Position numbers and translations under genes: made by a program
Source: a virus
Taxonomy: Duplodnaviria; Caudoviricetes
Reading direction: 5' to 3' (one strand)
Length of the DNA: 64,000 nt
IMG/VR virus record: IMGVR_UViG_2837005551_000010
Coordinates: 332-64,331 of that record
Shown here: piece after piece, positions 45,226 through 59,055 of the stretch
Layout of the letters: the number at the start of each line of letters is the position of its first letter
Position numbering within the stretch: the first letter of the stretch is position 1
Notes under the pieces: model-generated
The model's database searches: none
Seen by the model: the letters and a program-made list of their open reading frames with translations, nothing else
Told to the model about the DNA's origin: nothing

Positions 45226-47685
45226 ATGCTCACGAAATATTTTATAGAAATAGACGGCCAAAGGACCGAGATTCCTAATGAATGTATTAAGAATTGGGAT
45301 GAGGTTCGGTGTGCTTACAAGCGTGCAGATTTTAGTGGTGTCACTCGCTCGTTCTCATCGCAGTTTGAGTTTGTTGGCGATGCATACGATATGTTGATGG
45401 CCTTGTATCTCCGAGATGGATTCAATGCTGTTGCAACTCTATATCTTTATACCATTACAGACCGTTGGGTGTGGGAAGAACGATTTGCAGCTCCAATTGA
45501 TTTCTCAACCATAGTATGGGACAACAATATCCTAAAAGTCAACTGCGTAGACAATAGTCTTGCCGCTCTCATCAAAGCAAACAAGAGTACCAAGTATGAG
45601 TTTGGAGTCGGTAGTGATATTCCAATAGCATCGCAGTTAAACTATGACCGTATTCCTATGACAGAAGTTGTATCATATCAGGTTATTGGAGAAACAATCG
45701 ATGATAGTTCAACTATGAAGTTATCTGTTCCTGGTGCTTTGGGTGTTGTTTATAGGATACCTGTAAACATTATTACAGAAAATGTGCTTGTCAACGAAAA
45801 GTTACTGTATAATGACCAAACCACAGATGATGGTAGCTATATGGTATCAGCAAAAACAGATGTCACTATTACAATAAAGGGAGGTATTGCAATAGATATG
45901 ATTAATGCTTGTCAACCCGCAAACTTTGGAGTAACAATTTACAAAACAAGTAATGATGTGACTACTAAAATAGGTCCATTATGCAGCCAAAGTTTCTTGA
46001 TAACATATAGAGGCGAATATGATAAACCTGGGGACCTGCCAATACTAACGCCAGCTACACTTGGCGCAACAGCATTTGTTAAACAAACAAATACTATCTG
46101 GAAATGGTGGGTCAATGAGGCGTCTACATCCGAGGATAATTTATTCATATGGATGGATTCAAAGATGTCTTCAGATGAATATATGCGGCAAATTCCCGAA
46201 TACACCTATTCGGTTGACTTGAAGGAAGGTGATAAAATCTGGATTGGAGCTGAGGCGAATCCCGGTTTAGGTTCTCGCCCTGGGCCTTTTTGGATTTTAA
46301 TGCTCGACCAGAAAATTGAGATTTCTTGGGGCGGAATAGGAAAAAGTGCTGAAATTGATGTAATACGGCCTCTTGATTTTTGCGAAAAAATTCTCAATCG
46401 TATTAGCATGGGTAAGGTTAATGTTGGTGTAACATTTAGTGATTTCGATAATCGCCTTGCCAATACGTATCTTTTAGCGGCTGAGAGTGTTCGTGGAATT
46501 GGTGATGCAAAGATATACTCATCATTCACAGAGTTTGTAGACTGGATGCAAACAGTATTCGGTTATACATATTGTCTTGGCCCGCGCACAAAGGCACAAT
46601 TCAAAAGAAAGCAGTCAATATTCTACAATTCATGGCCGATTTCCGCAAATGATAATCTTCTGCATACGATGTGCCCGGTCGAGCCAGGAACCCAAGTTGT
46701 GATAATACAGGGGACTCCATACTGCGCTGTTTTGGGTGATTACAATTCTGACGGTGGCAACAATTACTACACTAAATGGGAAGGCAGTGATGCGTATAAC
46801 GACCCGAAAACCGGTAAAGCTCGTTTGGACACCATTTTTATAGGAGAAGATAAAGAAGGGTGTTATTTCGACAGTAATTATAATCTTCACATATATGATG
46901 GAAATGTTGAAATGGCTATTTGTGATAACCAAGTAATCAATTTTATCCACCGTTCTGAGCTGTTTAAATCTGACGCCTCAACTATGAGAATAAACAACGT
47001 TCGGGATGTCTCGTATTCTGTTGATTCAAGTTCGATTTATTCGGCAATTACTATCGGATACGAAAAGCAGGATTATGAAGGCTTCAATGGGCGTGATGAG
47101 TTTAACTTCAATAATACTTACTCCACCGGCCATACTGTTAACGATAAGAAACTTAGTCTCATCAGTAAATATCGAGCAGATTGCTATGGTATTGAGTTCG
47201 CCGTTCAGAAGCGTGGGCAGGATACTACAGACTCGTCAAGTGATAAGGATGTTTTCTTTGTGCTTTCTAAAAGTGAGAATGGGTTACTTATTCCGGATAG
47301 AACCATTAGAATAGAAAATACTATATCTGATATGGTATTCAATGGCGCATTTTCTCCAATAGCTTGTATCCAGGCAAATGCCGGATTTATAGGAATACAG
47401 GCAAAGCATCTTCATCTTGAATTTGCTTCGAGCATGGGGAATAGCTCTATTGTTATAGATGGCCGAGCTATGTCTGAAGATATAGATCTTGATGCTCCTT
47501 TGATGACGTGTGGTAGAGTATCATTTACAACTGATGAAATTGATGAACCGGCATCTGAAAACAATCTCATAGAAATTGAAAGTAATGGTATCCTGTATAG
47601 GGGATTTGTAAAAGATGCCACATTCAAATATGCCACGAATGAGGCCGTAAAATACGAACTAATCGTAAAAGATATTGAGCTATGA
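45226..47685 (+). CDS. Distal tail / hub-like protein
   Basis: About 820 aa after the TMP module; start moved to Met11. Confidence 0.7.
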   Translation: MLTKYFIEIDGQRTEIPNECIKNWDEVRCAYKRADFSGVTRSFSSQFEFVGDAYDMLMALYLRDGFNAVATLYLYTITDRWVWEERFAAPIDFSTIVWDNNILKVNCVDNSLAALIKANKSTKYEFGVGSDIPIASQLNYDRIPMTEVVSYQVIGETIDDSSTMKLSVPGALGVVYRIPVNIITENVLVNEKLLYNDQTTDDGSYMVSAKTDVTITIKGGIAIDMINACQPANFGVTIYKTSNDVTTKIGPLCSQSFLITYRGEYDKPGDLPILTPATLGATAFVKQTNTIWKWWVNEASTSEDNLFIWMDSKMSSDEYMRQIPEYTYSVDLKEGDKIWIGAEANPGLGSRPGPFWILMLDQKIEISWGGIGKSAEIDVIRPLDFCEKILNRISMGKVNVGVTFSDFDNRLANTYLLAAESVRGIGDAKIYSSFTEFVDWMQTVFGYTYCLGPRTKAQFKRKQSIFYNSWPISANDNLLHTMCPVEPGTQVVIIQGTPYCAVLGDYNSDGGNNYYTKWEGSDAYNDPKTGKARLDTIFIGEDKEGCYFDSNYNLHIYDGNVEMAICDNQVINFIHRSELFKSDASTMRINNVRDVSYSVDSSSIYSAITIGYEKQDYEGFNGRDEFNFNNTYSTGHTVNDKKLSLISKYRADCYGIEFAVQKRGQDTTDSSSDKDVFFVLSKSENGLLIPDRTIRIENTISDMVFNGAFSPIACIQANAGFIGIQAKHLHLEFASSMGNSSIVIDGRAMSEDIDLDAPLMTCGRVSFTTDEIDEPASENNLIEIESNGILYRGFVKDATFKYATNEAVKYELIVKDIEL

Positions 47686-48512
47686 TAGTAAGCCCTTTCA
47701 CTCCGCTGTTTTTCATCAAACGAAAGGCTGATGGGATAGATAGCGAATATATTCAGACATTCGCCACTACTGACCAGATACTCTTGCAGCTCATAGGAGG
47801 GCGTAATGATACCGTTGTCGCCCAGATTATAAGTGAGCCGGACGGAGCGGTCCTGCATCAAATTCAGTTCAATCAGTGGGACATAAACGACACTGTTACT
47901 CTGAGGTTCACAACAATCTCATTGTCGACCGGCTATTATTCAGTAAATATAATGGGTGTCGGTCGTAGTGAGGTGTTTCGAGTTACCGATGACCCTCTGA
48001 TATTGGATAAGACAACACTGATTCAGTATTCGATGAGGAACAACCGCCAGCGTCAAGACGCAGTGTTCTTTATTGACGGGATGCAGTATTTCTTTGATTT
48101 CCGAGTCCCAGGAGGATTCAAAGATAGCAATTGGACTTTCGGTGTGGAGAGCGAGCAGTTCGTGACCCCCCAGGCCGACATATCGCAGTTGTTCGGTCTG
48201 GAGTCAACGCAGAAAAGATTTACTCTCGGAGGCAGTATGGGTGTTCCCGTATGGTTTGGCGAAATGCTGAACCGAATACTCATCTGCTCCCATGTCTATT
48301 TCGATGGTATTAAGTACAGCCGAAAAGAGGCTAATGTGCCGGAACTGACCGTGCAGTTGGAGGGCGTGAACAGTTTTGTGTTCAATCAGACTCTCCAGCA
48401 GTCAACCAACCTTGACCCCGTAATCGAACAAAGGAATCACGCCGCCATGCGCCGCGTTGATGACACCAATTATAGAGCAACTTCTTCAACTATTAACAGA
48501 TTAATTTATTAA
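47682..48512 (+). CDS. Tail/baseplate protein
   Basis: Coupled ORF between the hub and the tail fibre. Confidence 0.65.
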   Translation: MIVSPFTPLFFIKRKADGIDSEYIQTFATTDQILLQLIGGRNDTVVAQIISEPDGAVLHQIQFNQWDINDTVTLRFTTISLSTGYYSVNIMGVGRSEVFRVTDDPLILDKTTLIQYSMRNNRQRQDAVFFIDGMQYFFDFRVPGGFKDSNWTFGVESEQFVTPQADISQLFGLESTQKRFTLGGSMGVPVWFGEMLNRILICSHVYFDGIKYSRKEANVPELTVQLEGVNSFVFNQTLQQSTNLDPVIEQRNHAAMRRVDDTNYRATSSTINRLIY

Positions 48513-48514
48513 GT

Positions 48515-51500
48515 ATGGCAATCACTCCAGACGAACAGCAGAGCATCGTCAGTGCCGTGCTTTCATCAATCCGTACCAACTCACGGACTATCGACCAGCT
48601 CACGCCCGTAACCTCGTTGAGCGAAACCGATAGTTTTGAGATAAACGGAGGAAAGAGAGTAACGTACAAGGTGCTCCGGGATTTGATAGCGTCTTTATCC
48701 TCATCGGAACAAGACTCTCTCAAAACCCTCATCAACAAGTGTGAGTTGAAATCGGTATCTATAACAGTTGCCGAAAGTACCGCCACACTCTCTATCTCGT
48801 CGGTAGGCAAGGCCATCACGACATCGATCCCGATTGCGACCACAAGCAAAGCAGGATTGATGACTGCCGCCGACAAAGTAAAGTTACAGAGCGCATACGA
48901 CACCGCCCAGGCAGCCAAAGATACGGCCAATACCGCCAAATCTAAGGCCGAGTCCGCTCAGTCAAGCGTTACGGCACTATCCGATAAGATTGGTGCCCCT
49001 AATGGTATTGCTCCACTTGATGCCAATGCAAAGGTGCCTGCCGCCAACCTTCCCGGCTTCGTAGATGATGTCGTAGAGTTTAACGCTATGGTAAGTGGCG
49101 TTACTTCGCAAATGGCATCTTCAATCCATAAATCGACCGACGCAGGTTGCATGGTAGTGTATGACACCGACAACGACGTATTCCTTCTCGCAGTGTCGAA
49201 AGTTGCTGTTTCAGATAATACTCAATGGGGAATTATCAAACGCCCCATCAAGAATCTGAATGCCGCCACTCCCGCTGTTGAAGGTGGAACCCTCCAACAG
49301 CAAATCAATGTGTCGGATTACTGGCAGATTCAAAACGGTGGCGCAAGCCTCATTCTCACGCAGTTCACATACTACAACAACTGGCTCGACGCTGATGCCT
49401 ATGGAACAGGCACAGCCGCAGGTCGTGTGCCCGAAGGAGGCAAGATTTACACCTGCACCTCGGACAACAAGACCTTCCGTTGGAGCGGTTCTGAACTCGT
49501 AACCATTGGCTCTGACCTTGCACTTGGACACACTGCAAGCACCGCTTTTCCCGGTGATGAGGGCGCACAGCTTCAAGAAGATTTAAAGGACACCCGTGAT
49601 GAAGTTCAAAATGAGTCCATGCGTGTCAATAATATCGGTATATTACCCTTTGACGGATTCTATGAGGACAACCCTGACCAAAGCACCGGCGTTTGGTATC
49701 GCCGTTATCCTGCCAATGAGGGAGGCACCTGCTGTATGTGGTCAAACAAATTTCCAGAAGGGTATCATCCTACCGACTACAACACCACTTTCCACGGGTT
49801 CCAAAAAATCCGTGAAGATAGAATTTTCCGTCTTGCAAACGACCTCTACCGCTTTGATGGAGAGAATCTCGTTAAGGTCGGGGGCGCATCCGTCGGCAAT
49901 GTCTATAACCTTACTGCCGAACTGCCGACACCTGACCCGGAAAAAATCTTCTACACCCTCAACGATTCAACCGATAAATACTATGCCCCTGCCGCTGTAT
50001 TAGCCCAGGGCAAAGCAAAAATCGGTATGGATATAACTTTCGCCATAGCCAAAGGCTCATGGAAAAGCTACAAATATATCGGTCTTACACTTGATGCCAA
50101 CGATGTTCTTGACAAAGATAATTGGCTCGATCTTGCCGGAATGTCGGCAGGCTCGGAGCCGTTTGTCAACATCAATGCGGTATGTGAGGATAAGGATTAC
50201 ACCCTCTCACTTGCGATTCAGGCTCTGCTCGACCTCAAAGAGACCACAGGCATAGACTATCGTAAGGAGGGTATGGTCATAACCTATCGCCGGAGTTCCA
50301 ACCCCTTTGTTTGGGAGACCAAGCAATATCAAGGTGCGTTGACCGACCTTACCGCAACCAATGAGGCCCAATGGGTTGACTTCGGCAATGGCGGAGGCGG
50401 TAAGGTGGAAACCTCAGACACGCCGGAGAAAGATGGCAAAGACGCACTATCCACCGGCGGGGCCTACGAGATTCAACAAAACCAGTTCGCCGGTCTTGAA
50501 ATGGTTCCCGACCCGACGGATTATATAATCCAGGGTGTGAGCAAAGCTGGCAACCCCATAGGCGACAGCATCAAGATTCCGAAGAGCAACGGGGCCGGAA
50601 CAGCAAGCGGCAGCACACTTACAATCTACTGCGATCAGGCGGTATGGGGTGCTTTCGGCAGTGAGGTTTCACTTATGGTTGCTATCAAGAGCGTAAGTTA
50701 CGATGGCGAGGATGAGGTTCTCGGAACAATCCGAACCATCAGTATCATTGACCCCGTGACCAACATTGAACTCTGGAGCGAGGTTAAGAACGAGCGTTCA
50801 TCAACGAGTGCCGCCGACTTGAAATTCAAGTTTGATTTCACCGACTTCATCACATCAGCATCGAGCCGAGATTTCATCATTCAGGCTACCGATGCCGATG
50901 GCAACCGCCGAACCAAGACCATCACCGTTACCGCTGTCGATGTTACCTGCACCTGCATACAGACCCTCAACTATTCAACATCAACCGCACTGGAAGTAGG
51001 CGTTAACCGAGACAAGAGTCTGCCGATGTATAAGTTTGAGAACAACGTGTCAACGCGCCTCGGTATTCTCGTTACTACCGAGATGTTCTACAACGGTGAG
51101 TGGCGTACACTCGGCACGGCCACTGTTGTTGATTCGTACTCCCACAACATATCCATCAATCCGTGCAATGTATTCGGAGGTGGAGAGCGTCTGGAACACG
51201 GTGCATATCCAATCCGTATTCAAGGCAAAGACCTTGCGTCCGGCGTTGTCGGCAATATGGTGTATACCGCCGTGATGTGTGTTGATTCCACCAACGCCAC
51301 GCCTATTGTCGTAATGCGTTACGATGATCGCACTGAGGGCAAAGTGCGCCTGTACGATTCAATATCTGTCGATGTGGCGGCATATACTCCCGGCAAGACC
51401 AATACTCCGGTAGAGGTGATGATTGACGGGCATATTGCGACCACCGTCAATTGTCCCATCGGTCAGCCTTACAATGTGAGCAAGCAGATACAAGGATATG

Positions 51501-54500
51501 CCACCGACGGCTCAAAGAGCTTTGATGTGTACGCCCGGAGCGGAGCAAGCAAAAGTGAAACTATCACGCTTACCGTTGAGGGGTCTGCTATCGACGCATC
51601 TTTGAAAGAGGGTGCGCTGTTCTCGTTTGATTTCTCCACCAGAAGCAACACCGAGACCGACCACAGAATCATTGACAACGGCTATGAGATGACTCTGAAC
51701 GGCTGTAACTATAACTCCAATGGTTTTGTCAATGTTCTTGGCGAAACGGTATGCCGTATTGCAGAGAATGTAACCGCTGAGATTCCTTATGCACCGTTCT
51801 CATCTGCCGCTTTGGAGACTGCCGGAGCCGCAATCCAGTTAGCGTTCTCTACAAAGAGTATCAAGGATAAGAACGCTATGCTCTGTGAGTGCTATGACCC
51901 GACAGCCGGTGTGGGTTTCTATATTCGCGGCAATGAGATTGTCCTCAGTGTCCTTAACGGAACACCCAAGCAGCAGCGCGTCGGATTCAAATGTGGTGAG
52001 AAGATCACTGTTGCCGTTGTTGTGGAACCCGGCACAAAGTATGTTACCTACAAGGGTATCAACTATTCCTTTGTCAAACTGTATGTCAATGGTGAGGAAT
52101 GTGCCGCCATCGGTTATCAGCCCGGTACAAGCGCACTCCGCCAAAGCAAGAACATCACGTTCAACTCTGCCAATGGCGATTTCAACCTCAACTACATCAT
52201 GCCTTATTCAAGTTACATGGAATGGTTGCAGGCGTTCCGTAACTACCTCTGCAAACTGAGTAATGTTACCGCCATGATTGCCGAGTATGACAAAGAGAAT
52301 GTGCTTGATACCACCGGCAAACCCTCTATGTCGCTCATGGCGGCAAAAGGTATGCCTTACTATGTCATTGTTGCAGATCAGACCACGTTCAACAACTTTG
52401 ACTATGCCCTCAACGGCGGAACTTCCACCTCTGACCAATTCGCCTGCACGCTTTACTACTACAATCCACAGCACCCGGAATGTAACTTTAAGGCGATAAA
52501 TGTTCTTTGGCGTCGGCAGGGTACCACCTCGGCACAACGCCCGGAGAAGAATGACCGATTCAACTTCAATAAGAAGAACAAGACCACGGGACTCAAGGCG
52601 ACTGTAACTCTGCTGAATCCCGATGACAGCACCGAACTCGGCCGTAAGGCGATACTTGCCGCCAAGCATAACAAAGTATTCGTTCACGAGACCGGGCATT
52701 TTGTCGATGTTATCACAGTAAAGAAAGACTACTCTGACAGCTCGATGGCGAATGACTGTGGCGTTTGCGACCTCATGAACGCCACGTTCCGCTCCCTCGG
52801 CTCATCTTACCTCACGCCGGCGCAACGCGCCTTTGACGGTACCCAAGACCTCGGAGACGGTGATATACTCACGGGTATTCAGATGGATCACTCCACAAAG
52901 AATCACCCCATCGCTTATTTCCGTGCAACGACAGACACCTTGCAGGATGCTTGGTTTCAGGCTCGTGGTAATTGGAAAGAGGATAAGGGCGAGCAGGTGG
53001 CTCTTGGATTCAAGGACACACCCGGCTACAACCTCGGATGTCTTAACTACGGTGATTTTGTGGAGTATTTCGGTACACCCGATGAGACTCTTGCCCAGAC
53101 AGAGGCGCGATTCAAGGCAGACCCCGAAACCAATACTGAAAAGGCACACGGAAACGTGTATCTCATATCTCAGTATTGCGGTCGAGATTATGCAATATAT
53201 CGCTACAAGAACGGAGCATGGACTCGTTCAACCGGCTCAATGAAGCAAGTAAACGGGAAATGGGTCGTTACTGGAGATGTTCTTAACCCCGTGACGGGTT
53301 ATGAACTGTTGCAGTATGCCGGAATGGACTGGTGGCAGGGTGTAAACACTGTCGAGGATATGATGAAACCGACTACGCAGAAATCCTCATGGGTGAACAA
53401 ACTCGGACTCGCTGCCACTGAATACCCGGCTTGGACATACTACTTTGAGTGTATGGTCGATGATGATCAGCTTCAGGAAGACCTGGCACTCGGCAAAAAG
53501 GTTCCTTACGACCTGTTCAATATGCTCAGGTTCTTTGATTCATGCGACTATTCTAAAGTAACGGGATGGGAGAAGATATGGAAGGAGAACGCCTATCGCT
53601 ATATGTCGCTGGAGTCGGCTATGGCATACACCGCGTTCACCGACTATCTCGCCGCCGTCGATCAGCGTGCAAAGAATATGCAGCCTATGTTCTTCCTTGA
53701 AGATGGGTGTTCTGTTGAGAATGGCGTTTACTCCGGCTACCGCAACATGGAGCCAACCCGAATGTATCTCAATAAAGTGTATGACTGCGATACTTGCAAC
53801 GGAGCAGACAACGACGGTGGACGCGATATTGATGCGGAGGTTGACCCCAACAAGATGACTGATGAGGCTACCGGATACACTAACCCCTACATGGGTTATG
53901 GCTCCGTGCTGTTCAACAATATCGACCGTCAGCAAGAGTGCTGGAATAGCAACGATCTCGGAGTAACGACAATCTCCTTAAAGAGCGTTGTGAACCGAAT
54001 GCGCAATCAGACAGCCGAGATTGGCGGAAAGACAATGGCTCCATTCTCACCGGATGGCGCAATGTATTTCTTTGTAGAGAGCCGTCTGATGTTCTGGCCC
54101 AAGACCATAGCGACCTATGATTGCGAATCAAAGTATATTGACAAGACACACTTTGCCAATATGCCATACTTCTATGCCCTGCATGGTCTCGGCTTGACAT
54201 CGCTACCCCGATTCATCGAGCAGCGTTGGGCAATCCGCGACGGTTACTATCAGACCGGCGATTTCTTCACCAATCCCCTCAGCGGTCGTGTGTCGGCAAT
54301 TTCCTCTAAATCCAAAATCTATATCACGGCAGCCGCTACGGGCTACTTCGGTATAGGTAATGATGCGAGCGGTCAGTTGTCTGAAACCGTCTATCTCGAG
54401 GCGGGTCAGAGCCATGCTTTTACTGATTTTGCACACGATTCGGGTGCGCTGCTCTACATCTACAATCCCGGGCGAATGAGTCGCATTGACCTGTCAGAGA

Positions 54501-56875
54501 TGTCGCTTGCGTTCCACTTTGACGATTTGAGCAAGCTGGAACTTGCCGAAGAGATTATCCTTGGCGGTAACAAACACTCGGCAAATACCTCGCTTAACGG
54601 CTTTAACCCCCTCGGTTCAATAGTTCTTGGCGATTTGCCGTTCTTGCGTGTGCTTGATGTCAGCCTCACAACGGCTACGAGTATCGACGCAAGCGGATGC
54701 CCTCGTGTTGAAAGCATCATCGCCAACAATACGGAGCTGACAACGTGTAACCTTGCACAGACTTCCCCGATTGAGACGCTGACACTCCCGGCTACAATGA
54801 CATCGCTTGAACTCGTCAACCTGCCTAACCTCTCTTTCCCCGGCGGTCTTACCATTGAAAGTGTCGGCAGTATCACGCGCCTTTGGGTTGAGGGTAGCAA
54901 GTATATCGACACCGAGACACTTCTGCTTGATGTGGCCCGCGCCGGTGCCATCCGAGAGGTACGAATACCCGATGTGAACGTAACGGCATCCGTTACCGTT
55001 CTGCGACTGCTCCGCAATTCCGGTGCCATAGGTCTTGATGCCTCCGGCGCCGCCTATGAGGAAAGCAATCAGTGTTCAGGTGTGATCGGCCGATGGATTC
55101 TTACAGAACTCATCAAGGAAGAGGATAGCGACGGTCTCGCCGGACTCAATAGCCTCAACCGCTACTTCCCCGAATTGGAGGTTATCAACTCACAGTATTC
55201 TCATATCTGCTTTTCAGATTTTGAGAACGACACCGAGAATATAACCAACATGGATGACAGCACGGGCTACAAGTTCGGCAATGCTTACACCGTTCCCGGC
55301 CACTGGGCGAAAATCGAAGAACTGAGCCACGCCTACAAAGCCACGTTCAACTCCCGTGATGGCAAAATGCACCTCCGCCAAATCAGCGATGCCGATTATG
55401 GCAAGATGAAAGACGGCACGGATTATGACCCGGCCGACCTTGCAGGTGAGGGTTTCGACATCATGAAAGACATTTACCCCCATTGGCGTAAGGGTGTCAA
55501 CGACTTCAAGACTCAGGAGAAGCACACCTTCATCAGCTCATGTCCGAATGAACCCATCTCAACCGCAACAAGGGTGAACCGCAAGCATCTTGCCGATATT
55601 ATGGTAAAATCTCTTGCCGCAATCTTCACCGACAATGTTGTTGCCGGCGGAGATTATGAGATTACCGACAACCCCAACATGAATGTCTACGAACTTGATG
55701 TTGCGGGTATGAAACAAGTCCGCTGGCCCGGAGTCAACAACGCCATGATTGGTGCCGTGTTTGTCGGAGAAGATGGAAAGGTTATCAAGAAGTTCAACAT
55801 GAGCGTCGGTGCCGCACTGTTCGACTTTGTGAACGGCGAGTATGTCTATACGGATGTTCCTAACGGAGCGGTCAAAATCGTGTTTACATCACCTGTCGGA
55901 TTTGACAATCTGGAGGCGATAGCCGTTGACAGCTCGGCAGTCGAGGCGATAGAACCCGATTGGGTGTATATCGGTGGCTCCCTTGACAACCCTGCCATCC
56001 GTGAACTCGTAGGCGTGTATGGTATGACACTTGACTCTCTTATGCGCGCCCGCTCAATCAGCGGTGCCGTTACCAAGCGAGGCGAGAACAACAATACCAT
56101 CAATCCCGATTGGCAGTATGATAACGATGGTAATCTTACCAACGCCACGGTACCCTCATCAACTATGACGGGTTCCGCCGCCAACCTCATCAATCTGTGT
56201 CGTATGCGCGGCCCCGGTTTTTACAGCATCGACTACGAGATGAGAATTGACATTGATAACCTTGTTCTCGGCATCATAGGTGATCGCGATGTTCAGGCAG
56301 TGTGCGGTTATGGTTGCGGTTCCGGATATTCCACCGGTGCCAACGGCATGAACGCCTACGGCAACGTGACCAGACGCTGGAATGGCGGTAACACAGGCAA
56401 TATCATCTTCGGCATTCAGAACTATGTCGGCTGTAACTCCGAGTGGCAGGACAATGTAGCGGTCAATGTGCCGAGCTTTGTAGAAATGCGCCGCCAGCGA
56501 TATGCAGAGGTTGCAGCGTTCCCGATTGACGCCAAGTGGCATATCTATAATCCGCTCACTAAGACGGAGCGTGTCGTGCAGGGTATCACGGATACCAACG
56601 GAATGTGTGTCGCCCGTGTCAAACATGGCCGCTATTGCGACATGATAGCCTCTCGCTGTACCACTGACACAAGCAAATACAACGAGAACTATTCCGACGG
56701 CCATTGGTACACAGCCGGGCGAAGCCGTGTCCCTCTGCGGTCGGGCTACAGCGCGTATGCGCATGGCGGTCTCGCGGACTCGGCTGCGAATAACGCCGGG
56801 ACGTACTCGGGCGTGAGCTGCGGCGTGCGGCTGGCCTTCAGAGGCGAGTGCGTGTTCGACGACGAGGCAGCGTAA
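48515..56875 (+). CDS. Giant tail fibre/adhesin and DGR target (LamG-like, CotH-kinase-like, LRR, C-terminal CLec-type variable domain)
   Basis: 2786 aa; C-terminal RVPLRSG...GVRLAFRG variable repeat; internal motif blocks described under findings. Confidence 0.85.
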   Translation: MAITPDEQQSIVSAVLSSIRTNSRTIDQLTPVTSLSETDSFEINGGKRVTYKVLRDLIASLSSSEQDSLKTLINKCELKSVSITVAESTATLSISSVGKAITTSIPIATTSKAGLMTAADKVKLQSAYDTAQAAKDTANTAKSKAESAQSSVTALSDKIGAPNGIAPLDANAKVPAANLPGFVDDVVEFNAMVSGVTSQMASSIHKSTDAGCMVVYDTDNDVFLLAVSKVAVSDNTQWGIIKRPIKNLNAATPAVEGGTLQQQINVSDYWQIQNGGASLILTQFTYYNNWLDADAYGTGTAAGRVPEGGKIYTCTSDNKTFRWSGSELVTIGSDLALGHTASTAFPGDEGAQLQEDLKDTRDEVQNESMRVNNIGILPFDGFYEDNPDQSTGVWYRRYPANEGGTCCMWSNKFPEGYHPTDYNTTFHGFQKIREDRIFRLANDLYRFDGENLVKVGGASVGNVYNLTAELPTPDPEKIFYTLNDSTDKYYAPAAVLAQGKAKIGMDITFAIAKGSWKSYKYIGLTLDANDVLDKDNWLDLAGMSAGSEPFVNINAVCEDKDYTLSLAIQALLDLKETTGIDYRKEGMVITYRRSSNPFVWETKQYQGALTDLTATNEAQWVDFGNGGGGKVETSDTPEKDGKDALSTGGAYEIQQNQFAGLEMVPDPTDYIIQGVSKAGNPIGDSIKIPKSNGAGTASGSTLTIYCDQAVWGAFGSEVSLMVAIKSVSYDGEDEVLGTIRTISIIDPVTNIELWSEVKNERSSTSAADLKFKFDFTDFITSASSRDFIIQATDADGNRRTKTITVTAVDVTCTCIQTLNYSTSTALEVGVNRDKSLPMYKFENNVSTRLGILVTTEMFYNGEWRTLGTATVVDSYSHNISINPCNVFGGGERLEHGAYPIRIQGKDLASGVVGNMVYTAVMCVDSTNATPIVVMRYDDRTEGKVRLYDSISVDVAAYTPGKTNTPVEVMIDGHIATTVNCPIGQPYNVSKQIQGYATDGSKSFDVYARSGASKSETITLTVEGSAIDASLKEGALFSFDFSTRSNTETDHRIIDNGYEMTLNGCNYNSNGFVNVLGETVCRIAENVTAEIPYAPFSSAALETAGAAIQLAFSTKSIKDKNAMLCECYDPTAGVGFYIRGNEIVLSVLNGTPKQQRVGFKCGEKITVAVVVEPGTKYVTYKGINYSFVKLYVNGEECAAIGYQPGTSALRQSKNITFNSANGDFNLNYIMPYSSYMEWLQAFRNYLCKLSNVTAMIAEYDKENVLDTTGKPSMSLMAAKGMPYYVIVADQTTFNNFDYALNGGTSTSDQFACTLYYYNPQHPECNFKAINVLWRRQGTTSAQRPEKNDRFNFNKKNKTTGLKATVTLLNPDDSTELGRKAILAAKHNKVFVHETGHFVDVITVKKDYSDSSMANDCGVCDLMNATFRSLGSSYLTPAQRAFDGTQDLGDGDILTGIQMDHSTKNHPIAYFRATTDTLQDAWFQARGNWKEDKGEQVALGFKDTPGYNLGCLNYGDFVEYFGTPDETLAQTEARFKADPETNTEKAHGNVYLISQYCGRDYAIYRYKNGAWTRSTGSMKQVNGKWVVTGDVLNPVTGYELLQYAGMDWWQGVNTVEDMMKPTTQKSSWVNKLGLAATEYPAWTYYFECMVDDDQLQEDLALGKKVPYDLFNMLRFFDSCDYSKVTGWEKIWKENAYRYMSLESAMAYTAFTDYLAAVDQRAKNMQPMFFLEDGCSVENGVYSGYRNMEPTRMYLNKVYDCDTCNGADNDGGRDIDAEVDPNKMTDEATGYTNPYMGYGSVLFNNIDRQQECWNSNDLGVTTISLKSVVNRMRNQTAEIGGKTMAPFSPDGAMYFFVESRLMFWPKTIATYDCESKYIDKTHFANMPYFYALHGLGLTSLPRFIEQRWAIRDGYYQTGDFFTNPLSGRVSAISSKSKIYITAAATGYFGIGNDASGQLSETVYLEAGQSHAFTDFAHDSGALLYIYNPGRMSRIDLSEMSLAFHFDDLSKLELAEEIILGGNKHSANTSLNGFNPLGSIVLGDLPFLRVLDVSLTTATSIDASGCPRVESIIANNTELTTCNLAQTSPIETLTLPATMTSLELVNLPNLSFPGGLTIESVGSITRLWVEGSKYIDTETLLLDVARAGAIREVRIPDVNVTASVTVLRLLRNSGAIGLDASGAAYEESNQCSGVIGRWILTELIKEEDSDGLAGLNSLNRYFPELEVINSQYSHICFSDFENDTENITNMDDSTGYKFGNAYTVPGHWAKIEELSHAYKATFNSRDGKMHLRQISDADYGKMKDGTDYDPADLAGEGFDIMKDIYPHWRKGVNDFKTQEKHTFISSCPNEPISTATRVNRKHLADIMVKSLAAIFTDNVVAGGDYEITDNPNMNVYELDVAGMKQVRWPGVNNAMIGAVFVGEDGKVIKKFNMSVGAALFDFVNGEYVYTDVPNGAVKIVFTSPVGFDNLEAIAVDSSAVEAIEPDWVYIGGSLDNPAIRELVGVYGMTLDSLMRARSISGAVTKRGENNNTINPDWQYDNDGNLTNATVPSSTMTGSAANLINLCRMRGPGFYSIDYEMRIDIDNLVLGIIGDRDVQAVCGYGCGSGYSTGANGMNAYGNVTRRWNGGNTGNIIFGIQNYVGCNSEWQDNVAVNVPSFVEMRRQRYAEVAAFPIDAKWHIYNPLTKTERVVQGITDTNGMCVARVKHGRYCDMIASRCTTDTSKYNENYSDGHWYTAGRSRVPLRSGYSAYAHGGLADSAANNAGTYSGVSCGVRLAFRGECVFDDEAA
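56724..56833 (+). repeat. DGR variable repeat VR1 (in the target gene)
   Basis: 110 bp; 15 differences from TR, 13 at TR adenines (exceptions T>G at 56777, C>T at 56814). Confidence 0.95.
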
Positions 56876-56965
56876 AACGCAGAGCGCGTTTTGCGAAAAA
56901 ACGACAGAGGGAGAGCCGACCAACGGGAGGCTGCTCCCTCTCTCTTTATCCCGCCTCTGGCGGGT
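56874..56965 (+). promoter_or_regulatory. Hairpins downstream of VR (candidate retrohoming cis elements / terminator); repeated at +312
   Basis: AAAACGC/GCGTTTT, AGAGGGAG/CTCCCTCT, CCCGCC-TCT-GGCGGG. Confidence 0.55.
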
Positions 56966-57035
56966 CGATAAATTTTGATTTTTCTAATTGACCGATTTTT
57001 AGTAATTTTGTACCCAAAAGGTAGATAACCTCAAT

Positions 57036-57145
57036 GCCGTGTCCCTCTGCGGTCGAGCGACAACGCGAATGCGGGTGGCGGTCTCGCGTACTCGGTTGCG
57101 AATTACGCCGGGACGGTCTCGGTCACGAGCTGCGGCGTGCGGCTG
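57036..57145 (+). repeat. Silent second variable repeat VR2 (TR leader upstream, VR 3' end downstream)
   Basis: 110 bp; 12 differences from TR, all at adenines; in-frame TAA and no ATG upstream. Confidence 0.85.
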
Positions 57146-57347
57146 GCCTTCAGAGGCGAGTGCGTGTTCGACGACGAGGCAGCGTAAAACGCAGAGCGCG
57201 TTTTGCGAAAAAACGACAGAGGGAGAGCCGACCAACGGGAGGCTGCTCCCTCTCTCTTTATCCCGCCTCTGGCGGGTCGATAAATTTTGATTTTTCTAAT
57301 TGACCGATTTTTAGTAATTTTGTACCCAAAAGGTAGATAACCTCAAT

Positions 57348-57457
57348 GCCGTGTCCCTCTGCGGTCGAGCAACAACGCGAATGCGAATGGCGGTCTCGCG
57401 TACTCGAATGCGAATAACGCCGGGACGAACTCGAACACGAACTACGGCGTGCGGCTG
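57348..57457 (+). ncRNA. DGR template repeat (TR)
   Basis: Ten AAY codons and 25 adenines; diverges from the VRs after GTGCGGCTG (TR ACATTAAGG vs VR GCCTTCAGA); TAATTTTG -7 box at 57315; upstream of the RT. Confidence 0.95.
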
Positions 57458-57621
57458 ACATTAAGGACTATAATCATGGGCGGGTTAACCGCTCTTATTA
57501 TATAAATCGCCACACTGCAACGTCCACGTGCTGGGCAATGAAAGAGACGAGAGGTTAGAGCCTCGGCAACCCTCGCGCAAGCAGAAAGCCGGAACATAAC
57601 GAAGAGCCCTGAAGGCGCGTC

Positions 57622-59055
57622 ATGGAGATTCAGTATCCAATTGATAATCTTATCCCAGAGATTGTCAGCGACTCCAATATGTATAGTGGCTATGATTATG
57701 TAATCAGCCATTTGGAGAGCAAAGAGCAACGGGCCAAATATGCTCCCGACAAGGAGCCAAAGACGGAGTATGATTTTAATACTCCCGAAGAATACGCCGC
57801 ATATCTGGAACAACAGATTTATGCGGCGAAAGTGCGTGATGCTATAATCGGCACTCTGAAAAGGCAGATTGCCGATGGCTCTTTTAGGATCACGCTGAAA
57901 GATGTAAAGACACTACGGGTTAAGGATGGACCTAAAGAGCGGGAGTGCCAGGCACCTAAAGTCCCAAAGCGTGTCGGATGCCATTGTATAATGGTGGTGG
58001 TTGAGAAATACACTTATCCCTCACTGATTCACAATACGGGAGCCTCTATCAAAGGAAGGGGTATGCACTGGATGCACCATATTATTGAGGATGATATTAA
58101 GGCGGTGCCGGGACTGTTTACCCACTATTATAAAAATGACATTTCCCATTATTACGACAGTATAAGCCAGGAGCGGATGAAATGCGTAATCCGGCAATAC
58201 ATCAGTGACTCCGTTCTGCTTCCGATTCTTGATAGTTTCATAACGCTGCTCCCCGAAGGACTTTCAAAAGGATTGCGTTCATCGCAGACTTTCGGAAATC
58301 TCTTTATTTCGCCGGTCCACCATAAGATGCTCTCTATGGCAGAACGATATTTCATATCAAATGAGGATGGGAGTGTCGAGGTCAGATATCTCTACTACAA
58401 CTATTGCGATGATACTGCAATCGGGGGCAATGACAAGAAACGGCTCTGGCAGTTGCGGGATGTCTATGTTGAGGAGATGGCAAAACTCGGTTTGACTGTC
58501 AAACCTAACGAGGCGGTTAGACCGCTTACGGATGGTCTTGATATGGTTGGTTATGTTCATTATCCGACTCACACCCTGCTCCGTAAGAGAACGAAACAAA
58601 ATGCGGCCCGGAAGCTGGCTAAGGTTAAATCTCGAAAGCGCCGACAAAAAATCATAGGCTCTTTCAAGGGTATGGCTTGCCATGCTGACTGCAAGCATTT
58701 ATATTTCAAATTAACACATCATCAAATGCAAAAATTTTCAGAGATGGGAATTTCCTATACTCCCGCAAACGGAAAGGAAATGCTCCCCGGCAATGTCGTA
58801 AGACTCGCCGCCCTCCAGAATAAGACCATCGAGGTTCACAAGTTCGTATCCGGGCAGGAAACCGGCTACGGCAAAGACCGATATATCGTATCGTGCCGCG
58901 ACCCGCAGACGGGAACTTGGATGAAATTCTTCACCTCCTCCGAAGAGATGAAACAGATACTCGAAAAAGTTCGCGACGTTGACGGATTTCCATTTGAGAC
59001 CATCATCCAAAGCGAGGTATTTGACGGAAACAAAGTAAAATACAAGTTTACCTAA
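57622..59055 (+). CDS. DGR reverse transcriptase with C-terminal extra domain
   Basis: YYKNDISHYYDSI, LSKGLRSSQTFGN (GxxxSQ), YCDD catalytic motif, GLDMVGY; adjacent TR/VR pair. Confidence 0.95.
   Translation: MEIQYPIDNLIPEIVSDSNMYSGYDYVISHLESKEQRAKYAPDKEPKTEYDFNTPEEYAAYLEQQIYAAKVRDAIIGTLKRQIADGSFRITLKDVKTLRVKDGPKERECQAPKVPKRVGCHCIMVVVEKYTYPSLIHNTGASIKGRGMHWMHHIIEDDIKAVPGLFTHYYKNDISHYYDSISQERMKCVIRQYISDSVLLPILDSFITLLPEGLSKGLRSSQTFGNLFISPVHHKMLSMAERYFISNEDGSVEVRYLYYNYCDDTAIGGNDKKRLWQLRDVYVEEMAKLGLTVKPNEAVRPLTDGLDMVGYVHYPTHTLLRKRTKQNAARKLAKVKSRKRRQKIIGSFKGMACHADCKHLYFKLTHHQMQKFSEMGISYTPANGKEMLPGNVVRLAALQNKTIEVHKFVSGQETGYGKDRYIVSCRDPQTGTWMKFFTSSEEMKQILEKVRDVDGFPFETIIQSEVFDGNKVKYKFT

Follow-up and report, generated by a model that had tools for sequence, protein, structure and literature searches.

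The window analyzed here is a 64,000-nt stretch of a virus genome (Duplodnaviria; Caudoviricetes; IMG/VR record IMGVR_UViG_2837005551_000010, positions 332 to 64,331), and it carries a diversity-generating retroelement (DGR) with two variable repeats (VRs) in place of one. The DGR comprises a reverse transcriptase (RT) gene, a template repeat (TR) and VR related by adenine substitutions, a VR (VR1) at the 3′ end of a target gene, a VR-specific flank followed by hairpins, and a structured RNA (Table 1). The flank is assigned from sequence as a putative counterpart of the initiation of mutagenic homing (IMH) element, and the hairpins as putative counterparts of the hairpin that follows an IMH. 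The target is a giant phage protein that matches phrog_14959 over residues 7–2780 (E = 0) and has no match in Pfam; VR1 encodes its C-terminal tip. The second repeat, VR2, lies between VR1 and the TR and belongs to no open reading frame (ORF). The three direct repeats, located with a repeat finder and by register-by-register comparison, follow each other at start-to-start spacings of 312 and 312 bp, a period equal to 104 codons. No remote VRs were found elsewhere in the genome.

Table 1. Features of the DGR locus, in window coordinates.
Feature	Position	Strand	Remarks
DGR target gene, 2786 aa, giant phage protein	48515–56875	+	phrog_14959 (function unknown); VR1 encodes the C-terminal tip
VR1, expressed variable repeat, 110-nt core	56724–56833	+	15 differences from TR, 13 at adenines
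VR-type 3′ flank (IMH-like, GCCTTCAGAGGCGAG...) with last codons and stop of target gene	56834–56875	+	TR/VR homology stops at 56833
Three hairpins 3′ of VR1	56871–56964	+	56871–56895; 56906–56941 (sequence-conserved, T-rich tail); 56950–56964 (covarying)
TR leader, copy 1	56965–57035	+	TAnnTTTG box TAATTTTG at 57003–57010; identical to 57277–57347
VR2, non-coding second variable repeat	57036–57145	+	12 differences from TR, all at adenines
Second copy of VR 3′ flank, stop, three hairpins and TR leader	57146–57347	+	TAATTTTG at 57315–57322
TR, template repeat	57348–57457	+	25 adenines, AAY-rich; identical in L003, L012, L039–L042 and L046
RT-3 RNA motif (Rfam RF03068)	57505–57610	+	between TR and RT gene; likely DGR spacer RNA
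DGR reverse transcriptase, 477 aa, with C-terminal extension	57622–59055	+	phrog_1423, E = 9.4e-68

VR2 is a VR by its surroundings on the 3′ side and a TR by its surroundings on the 5′ side. The 202 nt that separate VR1 from VR2 (56834–57035) and VR2 from the TR (57146–57347) are 100% identical, including all 52 adenines. The flank that follows the core, GCCTTCAGAGG..., is common to VR1 and VR2, and the TR core runs into a different one, ACATTAAGGAC...; the VR-type flank is kept in all relatives and is distinct from that of the TR. The duplicated unit begins at the VR core, and no gene sequence upstream of the VR was duplicated with it. These comparisons bear out two statements of an initial annotation of this DNA: that three repeats stand at an exact 312-bp period, with the starts listed in Table 1, and that VR2 has the TR leader and its box upstream and the 3′ end of the gene, its stop and the hairpins downstream. 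The hairpin region has a predicted DNA fold of −41.6 kcal/mol (z = −3.5) and matches to a terminator-like scan. The TAnnTTTG box of the leader is kept across relatives, and we take it to be a promoter of the Bacteroidota type on the basis of what is known of Bacteroides promoters; a sigma-70 promoter scan of the locus was uninformative because the host belongs to the Bacteroidota.

An otherwise identical locus without the duplication was identified in public data. A look-up with the exact 2786-aa target protein returned one contig (L046; Logan, run ERR4082416), which is 100% identical to positions 46015–58716 of the window (12.4 kb), VR1 allele included, minus exactly one 312-bp unit. When aligned to the window, it yields 12 and 14 mismatches in two overlapping alignments, and all of these are the differences that separate TR from VR2 and VR1 from VR2. 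The duplication is therefore very recent, VR1 was left unchanged by it, and VR2 is the new sequence. This contig, assembled with k = 31, passes straight through both sites where a branch would be expected, which speaks for little or no VR2 in that sample.

RT-based and DNA-based searches (IMG/VR, metagenomes, GTDB genomes and the host family) yielded about 38 distinct related loci. A clear VR and TR pair was recognized in 25, always as one VR located 270–323 bp upstream of one TR. The initial annotation had suggested searching other DGR loci for VR-spacer arrays; no three-copy array was found among the ~38 related loci, including seven with an identical RT, and there was none in L046. In public assemblies, 878 blocks list this exact RT protein. 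Five loci with an identical RT (L039, L041 and L043–L045) have the single-VR layout, with 435 nt from the end of the gene to the start of the RT compared to 747 nt here, a difference of 312. They have the same or nearly the same TR and a different VR allele each, so the DGR has been active in this lineage; the TR of the window occurs with seven further distinct VR alleles in close relatives. A pattern consisting of the TR leader, the 5′ end of the VR, a gap and the VR-type flank occurs only in the loci of this genome, and the gapped leader-VR junction had no match in IMG/VR. We also looked for duplication-bearing assemblies using an 89-aa mechanical ORF that spans VR2 (57034–57303). In 5.8 billion proteins it matched only the ORF that spans the TR in single-VR phages.

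Substitutions in both repeats have the pattern expected of template adenines. VR2 differs from the TR at 12 of 110 nt, all of them adenines in the TR (25 in the core; hypergeometric P = 1.5e-9), as the initial annotation had it. Thus 12 of the 25 adenines are changed (eight to G, four to T, none to C) and 13 are retained. The enrichment is comparable for VR1 (P = 1.6e-8), except that two of its differences, on which the initial annotation was silent, are at other bases: T>G at the position equivalent to 57401 and C>T at that equivalent to 57438. Non-adenine changes are likewise present in VRs of relatives. VR2 cannot be translated, since an in-frame TAA lies three codons upstream (57026) and there is no start codon; the alternative tip string that had been read from it, together with the upstream stop and the lack of an ATG, agrees with our translation and reading frame. 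That VR2 is free of stops is uninformative on selection because AAY and TAC codons cannot become stops through adenine changes.

VR1 and VR2 were compared to establish what they share. Nine sites are mutated in both, with the same base at four, all A>G, which matches chance expectation given a spectrum in which about two thirds of changes are A>G. The initial annotation had restricted the sharing to the last two mutated codons; AGC and TGC are indeed the only identical mutated codons, and the claim fails at the nucleotide level, where four of the nine sites agree. The first 20 nt of the TR and VRs are adenine-free and identical, VR2 equals the TR for the first 23 nt, and this 20–23 nt run is the longest perfect identity between TR and VR. 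Differences between VR2 and the TR begin at offset 23, and those between VR2 and VR1 extend to offset 90; a hybrid with a single breakpoint between TR and VR1 could therefore not give VR2. A simple TR/VR1 hybrid was rejected on this basis, and a plain crossover between sister copies is therefore insufficient. The content of VR2 comes from a separate adenine-mutagenic reverse-transcription event, independent of VR1. Independent diversification had been proposed before, and it holds up here, with the same VR1 allele present in L046 without VR2 and no TR/VR1 breakpoint that makes VR2.

We conclude that the locus probably records a real and very recent 312-bp tandem duplication, in which an exchange between TR and VR gave the DGR a silent VR that is likely neutral and short-lived. 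The ancestral layout would have been gene, VR, IMH-like flank with stop, hairpins and leader, TR, RT-3 RNA and RT, the layout that all relatives and L046 display. Joining of the TR 5′ end and its leader to the VR 3′ end by an exchange would then produce the order gene-VR1-X-S-VR2-X-S-TR, where X-S is the 202-nt block from the VR 3′ flank to the leader, with VR1 untouched. The substitutions in VR2, being adenine-templated, would have been produced by the element's own RT. In a one-step route, a mutagenized cDNA would attach at the 3′ side of the VR, and its other end would be resolved on the TR DNA of a sister copy; TR and VR DNA would offer it the same adenine-free 20 nt of homology. The switch would lie within offsets 0–22, because the leader adenines beside VR2 are unchanged. 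In a two-step route, an unequal crossover between TR and VR would be followed by ordinary homing into the new copy. The proposal in the initial annotation, that an unequal VR/TR crossover made a second retrohoming target, is thus retained in part: a VR-type copy with all the known cis elements appears to have come from a TR/VR exchange, but a crossover between sister copies does not suffice. A long read-through cDNA (VR1-X-S-TR) integrated at the VR was also considered and rejected, because by this route the adenine-mutagenic RT would have copied the first X-S block, which is nevertheless unchanged (0 of 52 adenines in 202 nt, with ~25 expected; P ~ 1e-15).

VR2 could instead be a frozen allele, captured by a TR by VR crossover within the first 23 nt between genomes that carried different VR alleles, and never homed into. 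We regard this as unlikely. Such a crossover would have used the longest stretch of perfect TR/VR identity, different VR alleles do coexist in the phage lineage, and a GT....GT patch is common to VR2 and the expressed VR of L043/L044. Offset 20 (window 57368 in the TR) is difficult to reconcile with it. The A is replaced by G (Ser>Gly) in seven of eight expressed VR alleles, G is fixed in the TR of L015, and only VR2 and L003 retain A, which would require either a 2-nt crossover interval or a rare allele. In addition, no sampled expressed allele is close to VR2, the nearest in this small sample differing at 11 of 110 nt. Capture of a formerly expressed allele as a whole therefore seems unlikely from the alleles at hand.

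The alleles of relatives contain further patterns. Gly at offset 20 looks like the result of selection for this residue at this position of the tip. The shared patch consists of G, T, G and T at offsets 80, 81, 86 and 87 in VR2 (57116–57123) and in the expressed VR of L043/L044 (L043:2271–2278), with a chance of ~0.002 per pair before correction for several comparisons. A non-adenine T>G change that converts TAC (Tyr) to GAC (Asp) recurs: VR1 has it at window 56777, and the L003 and L015 VRs have it at a different TAC codon. Either selection or a second, weaker misincorporation mode may account for it. The TRs of L043 (2503–2612), L044 and L045 differ from that of the window (57348–57457) by A>G at offset 66 and A>C at offset 68, with an identical RT, and the VR of L043/L044 still has A at both offsets. 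The supposedly invariant TR has therefore itself been altered at adenine sites, perhaps by VR-to-TR conversion or self-homing.

What VR2 might do was considered with reference to the DGR of phage BPP-1. There, a recipient VR requires three elements: a 3′ IMH, a hairpin or cruciform after it, and short 5′ homology to the TR, for which 8 bp suffices and at least 19 bp is better; sequence upstream of the VR is dispensable (Guo et al. 2011, PMC3240598). In VR2, the VR flank and hairpins are present as identical copies, and the first 23 nt match the TR. By analogy, VR2 should be a competent homing target, because the three cis features that suffice for a recipient VR are present. It was rejected as a template or pseudo-template, an alternative raised in the initial annotation, having a VR-type rather than a TR-type 3′ flank, terminator-like hairpins, no RT-3 RNA and 13 of 25 template adenines. 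The identity that flanks the variable sites is uneven, with 221 nt of perfect identity on the 3′ side compared to 20 nt on the 5′ side; therefore, recombination should mostly delete VR2 and keep VR1. VR2 is most likely a neutral and short-lived by-product.

A broader interpretation is that such duplications are a regular by-product of DGR retrohoming, because the end of the cDNA matches TR DNA as well as VR DNA, and that gene-less VRs are rewritten without selection and sometimes replace or patch the tip. We consider this rather improbable. If true, a stored-allele layer would be added to DGR hypermutation, and the window and L046 would together capture the process at its birth.

More specifically, VR2 could be part of a programmed silent-cassette layer, a maintained reservoir, diversifying without selection, from which recombination or gene conversion would carry sequence into the gene, as in pilS/pilE or vls, and the initial annotation had proposed a DGR coupled to cassette-type antigenic variation through a single crossover in the shared first 20 bp. 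The geometry permits this: the period is a whole number of codons, the copies share 20 nt on the 5′ side and 221 nt on the 3′ side, and a crossover within the first 20 nt would put VR2 in frame in the gene. The same lengths favor a collapse that discards VR2, and a swap by deletion is one-shot, as it destroys the array. There is one cassette only, none of the sampled expressed alleles is derived from VR2, and neither L046 nor any other related locus has the array, the seven with a 100% identical RT included. We therefore do not retain the proposal, and a maintained cassette system is very unlikely here.

The initial annotation had cautioned that an assembler could concatenate two VR alleles through the 23 bp that VR2 shares with the TR, and the reliability of the assembly was therefore examined. 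The window corresponds to C5:453480–517479 of a 3.55-Mb genome in five contigs. A second contig, C2 (30.4 kb), consists of C5:502327–517644 joined to C5:453062–468165 across the core TTACGAAAAAT. It is the attP junction of a 64.6-kb prophage in excised or circular form, and this prophage fills the window (C5:453062–517644; window −417 to 64165). The prophage is therefore spontaneously active in the sequenced culture. The host is placed in Muribaculaceae and the element read as a mouse-gut prophage; identical loci occur in named Muribaculaceae metagenome-assembled genomes (MAGs) and in genomes from the window's own family. No match to the window was obtained by megablast against INPHARED phages. 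C2 has the same VR1-VR2-TR tandem, with the same alleles, as C5. Every internal difference between C2 and C5 is a 1-nt homopolymer indel, and other redundant contigs are also indel-rich; by this error pattern, the assembly was almost certainly built from long reads.

A mixed population of single-VR phages whose two VR alleles were concatenated during assembly is a highly improbable source of the array. VR2 does share 23 nt and the leader with the TR, the identical phage assembled from short reads (L046) lacks VR2, and the locus breaks other assemblies: L040:2127–2226 and L042:2111–2210 are 100-N gaps in MAG scaffolds with an identical RT, one coinciding exactly with the position of the VR and the other inside the TR leader. 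However, the tandem is present in two contigs that differ internally only by homopolymer indels, and a long-read consensus needs reads with the junction to place a TR leader before a VR-type 3′ flank. A de Bruijn join would require k ≤ 23, and long-read assemblies do not fail by such k-mer joins. The caveat is thereby largely removed, and the VR1-VR2-TR feature is almost certainly real. Short-read assemblies break at this locus, and variants with VR arrays are easily missed in public MAGs. Last, it is extremely improbable that VR2 is a decoy that competes with VR1 for cDNA, or that a short RNA made from its leader promoter modulates the DGR. VR2 does share the cis elements of VR1 and has a TAnnTTTG box of its own, with terminator-like hairpins after it, but it is conserved in no relative, a single additional target would reduce homing into VR1 by no more than half, and there is no evidence of selection.

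Several points weigh against a recent TR/VR exchange that left a neutral copy. It is conceivable that L046 is the same strain with the array collapsed by short-read assembly, and the long-read origin of the window's assembly is read from the error pattern of redundant contigs and not from reads. The AGC and TGC codons common to VR1 and VR2 have a chance probability of ~0.1 and faintly suggest that the two repeats share descent in their 3′ parts. VR2 is known as one consensus sequence, identical in C5 and C2, and its predicted competence for continued homing is drawn from its cis elements. The one-step and two-step routes both fit, making the route of origin a reconstruction, and we infer rather than observe that VR2 is neutral and unstable.

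Other parts of the element are those of a DGR with some departures. The RT contains GLRSSQ and YCDD motifs, read in the translation, and has a weak RVT_1 match; we take the combination of an SQ-containing motif 4 with YxDD to be diagnostic of a DGR-type RT. Residues 369–477 (window 58726–59055), 109 residues in total, match phrog_19665, a profile with only 105 positions, and this domain, which looks free-standing elsewhere, appears to be fused to the RT. The RT-3 RNA was recovered at full length (1–148 of 148) with 40.8 bits in cmscan compared to a gathering score of 40.5 (E = 1.4e-7), and only after the TR. No ORF for an accessory protein (Avd) is located between VR and TR, and the ORFs that follow the RT have no Avd-like match in Pfam, PHROGs or NCBIfam. 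Because not every DGR has Avd, its absence here does not exclude membership. Holin and amidase genes are located downstream of the DGR. For a C-type lectin fold of the VR1 tip, there was no sequence match in the PDB using either the single sequence or a profile. An AlphaFold model of the tip has a mean predicted local distance difference test (pLDDT) score of 54, and Foldseek returned only non-significant C-type lectin/TaqVP rows (E 2–4). Among the hairpins, the one at 56906–56941 (copy at 57218–57253), with the form CAGAGGGAGAGCC-loop-GGCTGCTCCCTCT, keeps its primary sequence in all relatives down to 57% RT identity, and the one at 56950–56964 preserves pairing through compensatory changes. 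The former is probably a specific cis element of the DGR and more than a terminator.

DGRs are described as one-way writers that transfer sequence from an invariant template to a coding target. The window and L046 form a natural before-and-after pair in which the element, or recombination between its repeats, made a second, gene-less target with independent adenine mutations. This provides a concrete route by which VR arrays and multi-VR DGRs could start, and in VR2 the mutagenic spectrum can be read without the influence of selection (12 of 25 adenines). The system is tractable, with a cultivable isolate, a prophage that excises spontaneously, and a phage common in mouse-gut data, and it could be used to find out if a target must be coding or translated for homing to occur, and with what frequency cDNA is resolved on the template and not on the target. 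The locus also calls for caution in DGR annotation and in the use of short-read assemblies; the latter are broken or collapsed here.

Silent cassettes for antigenic variation, such as Neisseria pilE/pilS and Borrelia vlsE, provide one comparison. As in those systems, an untranslated alternative copy of the variable part with shared flanks lies beside the expression site. Unlike them, the locus has a single, unconserved cassette that is very recent and was apparently minted by a retroelement, with no transfer to the expression site seen. Within an incomplete coverage of the literature, we found no published description of a VR-spacer-VR-spacer-TR tandem or of a TR by VR duplication. A search for silent, orphan or tandem VRs, TR by VR recombination and DGRs of Muribaculaceae, equally incomplete, returned only one sentence, on a VR of Pelodictyon phaeoclathratiforme BU-1 that lies outside coding regions (PMC3521204). 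DGRs with multiple VRs are common and have been attributed to duplication of the whole target gene (DiGReF, PMC3521204; MetaCSST, PMC6642488). As in these, one TR here serves more than one VR, and the VRs have different adenine substitutions. Each of their VRs is in a paralogous ORF or in the same ORF, whereas here only the VR, its 3′ flank and the leader are repeated, in tandem, and VR2 has no ORF. A further comparison is the BPP-1 DGR (mtd VR, avd, TR, spacer RNA, brt; PMC3240598), which has the same adenine-specific transfer from TR to VR, a VR at the 3′ end of a gene of the phage receptor-binding type, a VR-specific 3′ flank with hairpins, and a structured RNA between TR and RT. The locus described here differs in that no avd was found, the RT has an extra C-terminal domain, and a gene-less second VR is located between VR1 and the TR. 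In BPP-1, a VR is defined by its cis elements only, so a gene-less copy such as VR2 should still be a target.

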